A stretch of 33,234 bases of DNA, from positions 1-33,234 of IMG/VR virus record IMGVR_UViG_2585427777_000018. One strand, written 5' to 3'. A program made the position numbers. Positions 30,001 through 33,234 of this stretch are shown here, one piece after another. The DNA comes from a virus. Taxonomy: Duplodnaviria > Heunggongvirae > Uroviricota > Caudoviricetes. Within the stretch, counting starts at the first letter, position 1; each line of letters begins with the position of its first letter.

Positions 30001-33000
30001 TGAGTTTTGTCTTCGCATCATCTCGCTGCTCTTTGTAGGTGATGGCGTTATCACGGTAATGGTCTGTTGCCAGCCACAGCGATCCACAACCAAGCAGCAG
30101 GACAATAAGCACGCCATACAGCACACGATTCATATCACCACCAACGGATTGCCCAGACCAGAACAGCAATTGCCACAATACGAATGGCAAAAGCTGCCGC
30201 TCTTGTTAAATCCAGACTTGCTGGCGTCTCCACCTCAATGCCTTTCATAATGGACAACCTCAGAAAGAATCTTTTATACTTCCTCACAGGGAAAGAACCT
30301 CCCTACCCATAATTTCTCCCTTGCCTTATTCAAGGTCAGAAACACAAAACCCCGCTTGCTGCCAACAAACGGGGTTTTTACTTTTACTCACTTAAATTTT
30401 GCCAGTTCGCAGGATTTCGTGTTATCCGTTCGCGTTGGTCAACGGCATTTTTCAGCAGAATATTCTGCTTATCTGTCGATACTCCAGCACGCCAGCGCGC
30501 TCTCCTGGTCACGCCGCGATACCTGCCCGTAACAGTTATTTGAGCGGTTCCGACAGTCCCTGCCGCCGTCATATATCCATCGGCGGATTTCAGCACATGC
30601 ACCTTTCCGGTCTCCTGCGTTCAGTTTCCGGTAAAACGTTGAGGTGAAGCATTTCGAAGGCCCGATGTTGTACGGACAGAATGACGCGATGCCCGCTTTC
30701 TGCGGTTCGGTCAGTGGCACTCTGATGTTTTTCTCCTCCCATGCCAGCGCCTTATCACGCTCAATGGCGTTAACCCGGTCGCATTTTTCCTTCGACAACT
30801 TCATGCCCGGAACGACAGGTTTGCCATCCACCAGGATGGCACCGCGGCAGATAGTCCAGATACCCGCACCATCACGGTATGCCGTGGTGTGGTTACCTTC
30901 TTTTTCGTCAAGAAACTGGTCGAGGATTTCAGGCGCAGAAGCGCCCGCAGCAATCAGCGCCAGAACGACCGCTGATAAACCATAGCGGAATTTCCTGCTC
31001 ATCAGCTTACTCTCCCCGCGCCGCCTTACGCCGGTCCTCTTTGATTTTGAAATACAGGTTAGTCAGGTACGTCAGCAGCCCAAACAGCAGACTCCCCAGC
31101 ACGCCTATTGCCGCCCACTGAGACGGGGAAACCCTGTCCAGCAACTGCAGGAACCAGTAGCCCGTTCCCACCGCTGACGTGGTGTATGACACACCTGTTG
31201 TGATTTTTTCCATCTGGTACATACCCCGTCTCCCGCAATCCGAAAGCTCACAACAATATAAAGACCACCGGCACACACCGATGGTCCCTTGCGCATGCTT
31301 ACATCATCATGTCGCTGTCAGGTGTAGGTTCACCGCCATCTGAAGCACTCCCGTCACCCGCGATACCTTCCGGCTCAGGAACCGCTGGTACGCCCAGCAG
31401 CTCATCCAGAATGGCATCCACTTCTGCATCAAGACGCGACTCAAGGTTCTGGCGGAGTTTCTGTTTCAGTGCGCTCCGGACTTCTTCAGAGCGCAGGACT
31501 TCCTTCACTGCCTCAGCAGTGACCAGGGATGTGATTTCTGACATGGGATTTTCTCGCTGAAAGGGGTTGTTAAGGAGTAACGGGTTCTTCGGGCTTGCTT
31601 CCGGCTGACTGACTGGCGCTGATTTTCTCAGCGGCCCTTTTATCAATCTGCCTGCACCAGAAATCGCGCACAGCCCTGTACCCACCCGAAAGAAGATACA
31701 GCACACAGACCGCCGTACAGAAGTACAGCATCACCTGATGAATAAATGTCATAATTTCTTACCGTTATGGTTGACAATGAGAATTGTTTTCATTTAAAAA
31801 CCAATGTACGAAAGCATCTTTTCTTTACATTCTCCATTGGGATTCCCTCCGCCAGCTTCCATTCCTGCCGCTGGCGGCTTTTTTTAGCAATTATGCGGCT
31901 GCTCCAGCTTTGTTTGCTTTAACTTCCACCGTATCAATAAGTACAGGGTAGGTTTCTGCACTACCTGTAATATCCGTAATGACAAACCTGTTGAGTCCAT
32001 TAGCAGTATTGGCCCATTTCACCAGGTCAAACGCCTGTCCATCCACACCATCGAGCACCGGAGTAACATTAATGCTGTTACTGCCCTTAAATTTAAATGC
32101 AAGCGTATGCCAGTCATGGTCGAATGCGCCAAACGTGCCAAGTTCTTTTTGTTGATTAACTGTATGATGGTATGCAACATTAATACTGGCTTTATCTGTC
32201 TGGACAAAGAAAGAACTCAGATGGCCTTCACCACCCTCACCCGGCCATTCCGCTATTCGCCAGTACAAACCAAAGGCATACTTGTTTCTGGTTGTCTCAA
32301 GATTGACGTTTTCGGGGATTTTAAACCGGACAGCAATTTCCCCGCCTTTTTCCAGTAAAAGTTTTGCCTTGTCTGCAGCAATATCACAGTACATTGACCA
32401 GGATTTCGCGCTGTTATTTTTCTCAATTCGCAGAGCTTTATTGCCGCTGTCATCAACCAGTGTGCGCCTGCCATACACACCGTCCCAGCCATAGGGTTTC
32501 AGCTGATTGTCTGTAGCTTTTTTGGCATCGTAAAAAATTACAGACTCTGAGGTGGTAACCGGTCTGTCTGGAACAACCACCCCGGCAGTACCATTAACAA
32601 ACGCAGAAGACTTACCCGCGCAGCTCAGAATCGCCGTTGCCAGACGGTCGGAAATAATCCCACGGCGAGCCCATGAACTGAAATGGCTCGCCCTGTCCTG
32701 TGACGTCCAGGTGGCTGAGCTGTCACGCCATTTCGAACCGTAATAACCGATACCCGGAATGTCCGGGTCTTCTTCCGGTTTGTTCGTCGGCACATTCACC
32801 CCGTTCTCATCGGTCATGAACGGTACGAAATGGATATTCTTTTCCGTTTTATTTTTATAGCTGCCGTACACCGTCTGGTACGTGGATTCGTTCTTCTGCT
32901 TCCAGAAATACGTCGTGTCCCCGCATATCCAGGGAACACCGCCAGCAGAGCCACCGACGCACTGGCCTGCCATATCCGCCAGGTCTGCACGGAATTTATC

Positions 33001-33234
33001 AACCAGCGCACCAAACTGTGCGGCATGATTTGCCGGCGTACCGCCAAAATCAAATTCCCCCTGCATCCACACCACGGCAAACAGCACATTTTTCGGGTTC
33101 TTCTCCAGTGCCGCTTTTGTTCGACCGATAAGGTCCTTATACAGCGGCTTGTCCACACCCCAGCGGGTTGAATTCTCCGAGGCGCCACTCGCGTCACTGT
33201 ATGTGCCATCAGCTCCGGTGGTGAACGCTGAACC

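Follow-up and report, generated by a model that had tools for sequence, protein, structure and literature searches.

The window analysed here comprises positions 1 to 33,234 of IMG/VR record IMGVR_UViG_2585427777_000018 and ends, at position 33234, inside a gene for a nanS-p-type sialate O-acetylesterase that stands at the head of a phage lysis cassette. The initial annotation recognized in this arrangement the late region of a Shiga toxin (Stx) phage, and placed the gene for the late antiterminator Q, and possibly a toxin locus, just past the edge. We conclude with high confidence that this region contains the beginning of the late (lysis) operon of an stx-negative, defective Stx-phage-type lambdoid prophage located beside ynfF in an Escherichia coli chromosome, and that no toxin gene is to be expected there. 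According to the closest copies of the region, the missing upstream part would run in the order Q, a 197-aa open reading frame (ORF) in one such copy, the promoter pR', a 258-nt StxS-like leader ending at the terminator tR', a slot of ~17 bp, the small RNA (sRNA) STnc100, and the esterase. Throughout, content beyond position 33234 was read from near-identical relatives (hereafter proxies) and not from the window's own record.

That the esterase–S–R–Rz layout is of the Stx type (Sepvirinae-like lambdoid) was borne out both by sequence matches and by annotated gene orders. In particular, the 3.6-kb late region matches 504 phage records at 80–96% identity, the majority of them Stx-converting (Stx1a, Stx2a, Stx2c and others), and the annotated phages GER2, phiSTEC1589-Stx1c, P13374 and POCJ13 present the order Q, stxAB, esterase, DUF1378, DUF826, S, R, the antirepressor gene ant in some, Rz, and terminase. 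Indeed, a Q–stx–nanS-p–S layout has been documented for Stx phages (PMC10462455). Parts of the late region are, however, found in 4,460 of the 5,426 complete E. coli genomes, and for the esterase fragment alone we counted 2,544 sites spread over 985 of them (median 3, maximum 7 per genome). Esterase copies in these genomes far outnumber stx loci, and the layout is not diagnostic of a toxin. Consistent with this, O104:H4 is described as having five nanS-p alleles but one stx phage (PMC8065619), a preprint puts the share of chromosomal esterase-linked PasA sRNA loci that adjoin stx at less than 3% (10.64898/2026.05.13.724894), and NanS-p esterases are carried by Stx phages and also by phages that lack stx (PMC10462455); the presence of nanS-p on stx-free prophages has likewise been documented already (PMC10462455, PMC8065619). 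Because it is common to many stx-free prophages, the layout is unfit to flag a hidden toxin locus.

The region beyond the window edge

The closest proxy is L005, a 37.8-kb metagenome scaffold (ENA ERZ28584257) that is among 12 contigs encoding a 220-aa fusion protein also present in the window (see below). L005 matches the reverse-complemented window at 99.963% identity over 16,283 nt, without gaps and across all three of the window's private deletion junctions, and runs 4,380 nt past the window edge, which lies at L005 4381; at this level of identity, L005 is the best stand-in for the region beyond 33234. The other proxies on which we relied were cM8a (L002), E. coli O104:H4 2011C-3493 (L003), and the complete genome NMBU-W12E19 (L014). 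A copy of window positions 28400–33234 that is at least 99% identical is present in 30 complete genomes, including O104:H4 outbreak strains, ML35, cM8a and FORC strains, and a query spanning Q to the esterase is recovered from 29 of these as a single unbroken piece of at least 99.8% identity, the thirtieth (NMBU-W12E19) being of the L005 type (99.7%). In every close relative Q does lie just beyond the edge, as had been predicted, the distance from position 33234 to its stop codon being ~1.3 kb in relatives of the O104:H4 type and ~2.1 kb in those of the L005 type. In L003 and cM8a, the end of Q and the start of the esterase gene are separated by 765 bp devoid of annotated features; in L005, 781 bp that comprise a variant 3' end of Q and the 197-aa ORF replace 43 bp at the 3' end of the O104:H4 Q.

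L005 carries ninB, ninE, ybcO, rusA and ninH upstream of Q, which occupies L005 1833–2255 (PF06530, E = 1.7e-50) and is followed by the 197-aa ORF (L005 2387–2980, + strand) and by a sigma-70-like promoter that we assign as pR' (TTTACG-16-TATCAT, L005 3035–3062). Two hairpins, each with a run of T residues, lie downstream of this promoter: the first (L005 3093–3117) is terminator-like and spans +25 to +50 from the predicted start, which we placed ~6–8 nt after the -10 hexamer, and the second (L005 3298–3327) is the one that we assign as tR'. The StxS sRNA is a 258-nt pR' transcript that ends at tR' and is cleaved by RNase E at GU|AUU at +173 (PMC7547250), and the corresponding leader in L005 (~3069–3327, + strand) has GUAUU at +172/173 and the end of its second T-run at +258. 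The first hairpin had also been considered as tR' and was dropped, the published length of StxS being that expected from the second (PMC7547250). The pR'–tR' region of L005 is 94–95% identical to those of P13374 and GER2. Thus Q, pR' and a StxS-type leader with tR', features expected of Stx phages, were found, and found in the proxies only. STnc100 follows at L005 3386–3591, equivalent to L003 11007–11212 (+ strand; Rfam RF02076, 165.1 bits against a gathering threshold of 47); in both L003 and L005 the match spans positions 1–206 of the 206-position model, ~0.8–1.0 kb past the window edge, just downstream of the empty stx slot and directly upstream of the esterase, the full-length gene for which occupies L005 3814–5724. 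A 152-aa minus-strand call at L005 3220–3678 was rejected: it matches no Pfam family, lies across STnc100 and a terminator, and has no PGAP annotation in relatives.

The site at which toxin phages carry the stx cassette lies immediately after tR' and before STnc100, and it could be located to within ~20 bp because four toxin phages lose collinearity with L005 at the same point. These are POCJ13 (Stx1; left boundary at L005 3326, right boundary at 3344, insert of 1,494 bp), GER2 (Stx1; 3326 and 3344, 1,495 bp), phiSTEC1589 (Stx1c; 3335 and 3344, 1,760 bp), and P13374 (Stx2a; 3326 and 3357, 1,790 bp). In L005, O104:H4 and NMBU-W12E19 the slot amounts to only ~17 bp (...TTTTTTTGTATCCGT TCAACGGG AATGTTACATACC...), and the exact empty-slot junction, GGCTGGCTTTTTTTGTATCCGTTCAACGGGAATGTTACATACC, recurs in 11 IMG/VR contigs, all of which have Q and an esterase that is at least 99% identical, and none of which has stx. 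The boundaries of the stx cassette in Stx1, Stx1c and Stx2a phages are thereby mapped precisely, and the stx-free allele is seen to retain both the StxS-like leader and STnc100.

Searches with tblastn for Stx1A/B and Stx2A/B returned no match in the window, L005, L003 or L014, with P13374 recovered as a positive control, and blastn searches (word size 7) with three whole cassettes detected no stx remnant in the same four sequences, the only cassette match being the duplicated STnc100-like segment of the Stx1c cassette. The initial annotation had left room for a toxin locus between Q and the esterase; neither stx nor a tRNA cluster of the kind that it had proposed to look for is present there in L005, in any of the 30 complete genomes, or in any of the 11 IMG/VR contigs. 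ARAGORN found no tRNA gene in L003 10000–12000 or L005 1–6000; more distant relatives do have a tRNA-Ile and two tRNA-Arg genes. Hence neither stxA and stxB between tR' and the esterase, as in Stx phages, nor tRNA genes of the ileZ/argN/argO type, which many Stx2 phages have between Q and stx, occur in these proxies. In the O104:H4-type relatives Q is followed by the esterase with no cargo between the two, the very finding that the initial annotation had named as refuting its reading, and the hint of a toxin locus is thus unsupported; the 765-bp non-coding spacer contains only pR', the StxS-like leader and STnc100. The sole coding cargo in L005, the closest proxy, is the 197-aa ORF, which lies upstream of pR'.

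Several points weigh against our reading of the region. The flank beyond 33234 is known from proxies and not from the source itself; L005 is a scaffold assembled from a metagenome and could conceivably be chimeric, given that genomes contain repeated prophage late regions; and two stx-free versions of the Q–esterase spacer, one with and one without the 197-aa ORF, occur among close relatives. The recurrence of the L005 arrangement in the complete genome L014 (99.7%) and in the IMG/VR contigs L021 and L022 speaks against a chimera. Because both stx-free versions are found in close relatives, the spacer version of the source is only inferred, the L005 type being favoured as the probable one.

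The reliance on proxies, together with the mosaic nature and frequent recombination of lambdoid late regions, would also be the opening for a source that differs past the edge and carries Stx, or some other toxin or cargo, between Q/pR' and the esterase, and that would accordingly be a genuine, though defective, Stx prophage. The nearest toxin-bearing kin, the Stx1c prophages, occupy the same ynfE/ynfF locus, with an esterase that is 94.5% identical and Q–esterase DNA that is ~90% identical. We nevertheless consider a toxin-bearing source very improbable. Right up to the edge, the esterase DNA shares 99.9% identity with stx-free alleles as against ~90% with the Stx1c alleles, L005 shares the three private deletion junctions and has no stx, and stx was found in 0 of the 30 complete genomes and 0 of the 11 viral contigs of this allele group.

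Within the reading that we prefer, that of an stx-negative late operon, the empty slot might be ancestral or might reflect secondary loss, in which an Stx1c-type ancestor lost its cassette cleanly by recombination with an stx-free late region. The flanks of the slot are 94–95% identical to those of Stx1, Stx1c and Stx2a phages, the cassette boundaries agree within ~20 bp in all four phages, Stx1c prophages sit at the same chromosomal site, and Shigella Stx1 phages are the only others, out of 50,697 phage records, to have the 197-aa ORF beside Q; moreover, a preprint proposes repeated loss of stx from chromosomal copies (10.64898/2026.05.13.724894). However, no stx remnant is detectable, and the presence of the identical empty junction in at least 29 complete genomes and 11 viral contigs implies an established allele and not a recent accident. 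The Stx1c cassette also has its own diverged second STnc100 region (an extra STnc100-like copy in phiSTEC1589, at L011 3694–3944, 75% identical), which fits gain of the cassette at least equally well. We regard secondary loss as possible but somewhat unlikely.

The 197-aa ORF, ~1.4–2.0 kb past the edge, combines a DnaD_N-like winged helix (DnaD_N, E = 2e-8; full-length match to phrog_34160) with a C-terminal CxxC...CxxC motif (zinc-ribbon) and a basic tail. Only five of the 50,697 phage records contain it, these being Shigella Stx1 phages (POCJ13, 7888 and 75/02 Stx; 83–87% identity) in which it occupies the same place between Q and pR'. It is also present in NMBU-W12E19 and in 2 of the 11 IMG/VR contigs, and is absent from O104:H4. 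There is a slim chance that this ORF encodes a regulator of the late switch (or of StxS or pR' read-through) and that the 17-bp slot is a conserved acceptor for the exchange of stx1, stx1c and stx2 cassettes; were that so, the stx-free allele would be a ready recipient for toxin conversion by recombination. Two minor points may merit follow-up, namely this ORF and the precise coincidence of the cassette boundaries.

The esterase and the lysis genes

As the initial annotation stated, the esterase gene runs off the window edge. On the minus strand the frame is open from 33234 to a TAA at 31893–31891, and its translation (447 aa) corresponds to residues 190–636 of a 636-residue nanS-p-type sialate O-acetylesterase (31891..33234, assigned from Pfam and PDB matches and from the proteins of relatives), residues 1–189 being missing; the entry in the ORF list, 31891..33156, is counted from the first GTG. 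The fragment matches Pfam SASA (PF03629) with 29.9 bits against a cut-off of 24.8, over profile positions 89–158 of 226, a match that is partial because the gene is cut by the edge, and it matches DUF6645 (PF20350) with E = 8e-29. In near-identical loci the whole gene is 1,911 bp and encodes 636 aa with DUF1737, SASA and DUF6645 (Pfam). The 567 nt past the edge encode the N-terminal DUF1737 and a GQSN motif (residue 85), as seen in the proxies, and the SHFS histidine motif (residue 372) is inside the window. GQSN and SHFS residues are catalytic in SGNH hydrolases. The full-length protein aligns with chromosomal NanS (YjhS; PDB 3PT5) over residues 72–393 (E = 3.5e-118), with both motifs aligned, and its C-terminal domain with the solved NanS-p domain (PDB 6YP6; E = 7e-42), DUF6645 being a lectin-like jelly-roll. 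The three-domain architecture of NanS-p is therefore seen in part in the window (part of SASA, and DUF6645) and completely in the 99.96% proxy, and so is the late-region position of NanS-p, the downstream half lying in the window and the Q/pR' side in L005, L003 and L014. Over the window's 447 residues, the O104:H4 allele WP_000874468.1 and the L005 protein show no difference from the fragment. The review PMC8065619, citing Saile et al. 2018, reports that each of the five nanS-p alleles in O104:H4 C227-11 encodes an active esterase for the 9-O-acetylated sialic acid Neu5,9Ac2, and the window's fragment is identical to one of those alleles.

A different role for the esterase is suggested by gp84 of phi24B, a NanS-p homologue that is cut at SSP-containing linkers and whose DUF1737 decorates the central hexons of a T=9 capsid (cryo-electron microscopy preprint, 10.64898/2026.04.10.717836). 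By this account, the protein would be mainly a virion component and not a fitness factor of the lysogen, and would here be a decaying relic. DUF1737 is present in the L005 esterase, together with a SISSP motif at residue 55, and the prophage is visibly decaying. Yet, although 19.6 kb has been deleted alongside, the esterase and every lysis ORF are intact and essentially the same as in the undeleted relatives, and recombinant NanS-p proteins, including O104:H4 alleles, are described in PMC8065619 and PMC10462455 as active and as supporting growth on Neu5,9Ac2. We therefore think it unlikely that the esterase is mainly a virion part and here a relic; the virion and sialate-esterase roles are compatible and not mutually exclusive.

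If the operon works as the known biology of these families would lead one to expect, pR' would be constitutive in the lysogen, with transcription ending at tR'. Upon induction, Q would allow read-through into nanS-p, DUF1378, DUF826, S, R and Rz/Rz1; the holin would depolarize the membrane, a signal-anchor-release (SAR) endolysin would be freed and activated, and the spanins would disrupt the outer membrane. The esterase, once released, would strip 9-O-acetyl groups from mucin sialic acids (Neu5,9Ac2 to Neu5Ac), which could then be catabolized by E. coli. The decayed copy in the window would provide at most a Q-dependent esterase and lysis module.

The description of the esterase and the lysis genes that the initial annotation gave is confirmed by strong homology matches, for which chance is excluded, and all late ORFs of the window are intact. 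Its order of genes also stood, with the amendment that the esterase is not directly upstream of the S/R/Rz cassette, since the genes for DUF1378 and DUF826 stand between the esterase and the holin, an arrangement also found in Stx phages themselves. DUF1378 is a small membrane-like protein of 60 aa (31570..31752, minus strand; PF07125, E = 1.1e-35; phrog_494) and DUF826 an acidic protein of 81 aa (31299..31544, minus strand; PF05696, E = 1e-44), each identical to its O104:H4 copy; both are conserved late-region genes, the former in Stx-type phages. Holin S (71 aa; 31007..31222, minus strand) belongs to the phage 21 class II pinholin family, covering positions 1–63 of the 64-position 'P21 holin S' profile (PF04971, E = 1.5e-32), matching PHROG holin families and having two visible hydrophobic segments. 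It is intact and identical to the copies in relatives. Pinholins of the S21 type form small heptameric pinholes, with a TMD1 that serves as a releasable SAR domain and with dual-start antiholin regulation; the N-terminus of the window's holin, MYQM, offers Met codons M1 and M4 with no basic residue between them.

Endolysin R is a phage lysozyme of 177 aa (30469..31002, minus strand; PF00959), with the phage 21 SAR endolysin structures 3HDE/3HDF and RrrD 4ZPU as the closest PDB entries. Its triad, Glu35-Asp44-Thr50, aligns with that of 3HDE in the Glu-8aa-Asp-5aa-Thr spacing of these lysozymes, and residues 8–24, GLSAVVLALIAAGASAP, are rich in Ala and Gly and, by inspection, signal-anchor-release-like; endolysins of the R21 type have a weakly hydrophobic segment rich in Gly, Ala and Ser there in place of a cleavable signal peptide. 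At window position 30737 the gene carries a private V89E change, L003 and L005 both having Val at residue 89 where the window has Glu. At each of the five remaining positions at which L005 departs from the window, it has T in place of the window's G, and such uniformity hints at sequencing or assembly noise in the L005 scaffold. The gap between R and Rz contains a hydrophobic 37-aa ORF (30135..30248, minus strand) that is annotated as hypothetical in relatives and identical to theirs. In P13374, POCJ13 and many Stx phages this gap holds ant instead, and because the 37-aa ORF replaces ant, coverage of the matches to ant-bearing phages is gapped (65–68%). The i-spanin Rz (152 aa; 29675..30133, minus strand; PF03245, E = 3.5e-37; phrog_13, Rz-like spanin) has the 61-aa o-spanin Rz1 embedded in its +1 frame (29728..29913, minus strand), with a VSAC lipobox (...LLGVSAC|KSPPPVQSQRPEP...) and a proline-rich mature part, and the pair is thus an embedded two-component spanin, in which the i-spanin has an N-terminal transmembrane domain.

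The spacer between the esterase and DUF1378 genes (31753..31890) was examined with a terminator scan and by folding. It contains a G+C-rich hairpin followed by T7 (~31850–31885), which would be an intrinsic terminator on the plus strand only, antisense to the late operon. Across window positions 26000–33234 the sole Rfam match was to Esr41, at 31811–31885 (+ strand), and its score of 26.6 bits lies below the gathering threshold of 102; we did not accept it as an sRNA call, and a simple scan found no promoter-like site for it. The element at 31811–31885 could be a Pas/Esr41-like sRNA, a kind reported between esterase and holin genes.

Deletions and chromosomal site

Comparison by blastn with the intact prophages L002, L003 and L004 revealed three internal deletions in the window, with junctions at ~26957–26962, 26181–26183, and 24410. 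Relative to the intact FORC_069 prophage these amount to ~4.35, 9.9 and 5.3 kb, respectively, ~19.6 kb in total. The ~4.35-kb deletion takes the C-terminus of the terminase large subunit and the portal, and creates the 220-aa fusion ORF (26952..27614, minus strand), in which blastn mapping places a fragment of the terminase large subunit gene fused out of register to a fragment of the capsid gene; the ~9.9-kb deletion extends from the capsid C-terminus through the tail fibres and cor; and the ~5.3-kb deletion includes the start of a giant LPD38 gene. Because the portal, most capsid and tail genes, and the C-terminus of the terminase large subunit have been lost, no virions are possible; the complete morphogenesis module of an Stx phage is absent, and the prophage is, on its gene content, defective and predicted to be unable to make virions. 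The triply deleted form was found in 0 of the 5,426 complete E. coli genomes and the exact fusion protein on 12 public metagenome/Logan contigs; the best complete-genome matches cover only 88–98% of the window because they hold the undeleted prophage. For the purposes of risk assessment, the prophage would count as a toxin-free, non-transmissible remnant, the slot being empty in every close relative.

The prophage abuts ynfF (ynfF side of the window at 11245–13671, + strand; junction at ~13680–13770). In relatives, the annotation at the corresponding junction shows just 84 bp from the N-terminal end of the following gene, which encodes a 4Fe-4S protein and is probably ynfG; this suggests that the prophage integrated into that gene. 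In STEC1589-type strains, Stx1c prophages are likewise found at this locus, adjacent to ynfE/ynfF.

Between Rz and the terminase lies a moron gene (29013..29594, + strand; PF00300) for a 193-aa protein of the histidine phosphatase family, which RefSeq names lipopolysaccharide core heptose(II)-phosphate phosphatase (Ais/PmrG-like) in relatives and which is identical in O104:H4; it has an N-terminal hydrophobic segment, it did not match any PHROG family, and the copy in GER2 is truncated. The first structural-region gene after the lysis cassette encodes the terminase small subunit (271 aa; 27595..28410, minus strand; identified from RefSeq and identical proteins of relatives). A giant ORF of ~1,825–1,832 aa (window 18878–24376, minus strand) contains LPD5, LPD1, MuF_C and LPD38 domains and is an N-terminally truncated remnant of an 8.4-kb gene (2,784 aa) in FORC_069.

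Comparison with known systems

For every component of this arrangement a described counterpart exists: NanS-p, down to the very O104:H4 allele seen here, a lysis cassette of P21 type, StxS, STnc100, and the stx-negative prophage of O104:H4. The esterase has the same three domains as NanS-p of EDL933 (Z1466/933Wp42), O104:H4 C227-11 (five alleles) and phi24B (gp84/vb_24B_21), and like theirs its gene heads the late operon, in front of DUF1378-DUF826-S-R-Rz. It is only 72–75% identical to the esterases of P13374 (Stx2a), GER2 and POCJ13, with the divergence mostly in the C-terminal domain.

The lysis genes resemble the cassette of phage 21 in having a P21-family holin, a Glu35/Asp44/Thr50 lysozyme with an Ala/Gly-rich N-terminus, and an embedded Rz1. 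They differ in that the match to R21 is distant (E = 2.9e-18, catalytic domain only), in that a 37-aa ORF stands between R and Rz, and in that the holin begins with MYQM instead of MKSM, which we take to be the dual-start motif of S21.

Close relatives are the stx-negative lambdoid prophages of O104:H4 2011C-3493 (NC_018658, ~2.536–2.59 Mb), FORC_069, ML35 and cM8a, which are 99.5–99.9% identical to the window from the esterase to the terminase. The O104:H4-type prophage shares with it identical esterase, holin, DUF1378, DUF826, terminase small subunit and phosphatase proteins, the same ynfF locus, and the same empty stx slot; unlike the window copy with its three deletions, the O104:H4-type prophages have a full head and tail module. 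Among toxin-bearing phages, the closest kin are phiSTEC1589-Stx1c (PQ600364) and the Stx1c prophages, which have the same late gene order and locus and an esterase that is 94.5% identical; in the Stx1c phage, an insert of 1,760 bp comprising stx1cA, stx1cB and a second, diverged STnc100-like copy fills the slot that is empty here. Finally, the Shigella Stx1 phages POCJ13, 7888 and 75/02 Stx share with L005 the 197-aa ORF between Q and pR', whereas they have an esterase that is 72% identical and, unlike L005, carry stx1AB downstream of tR'.

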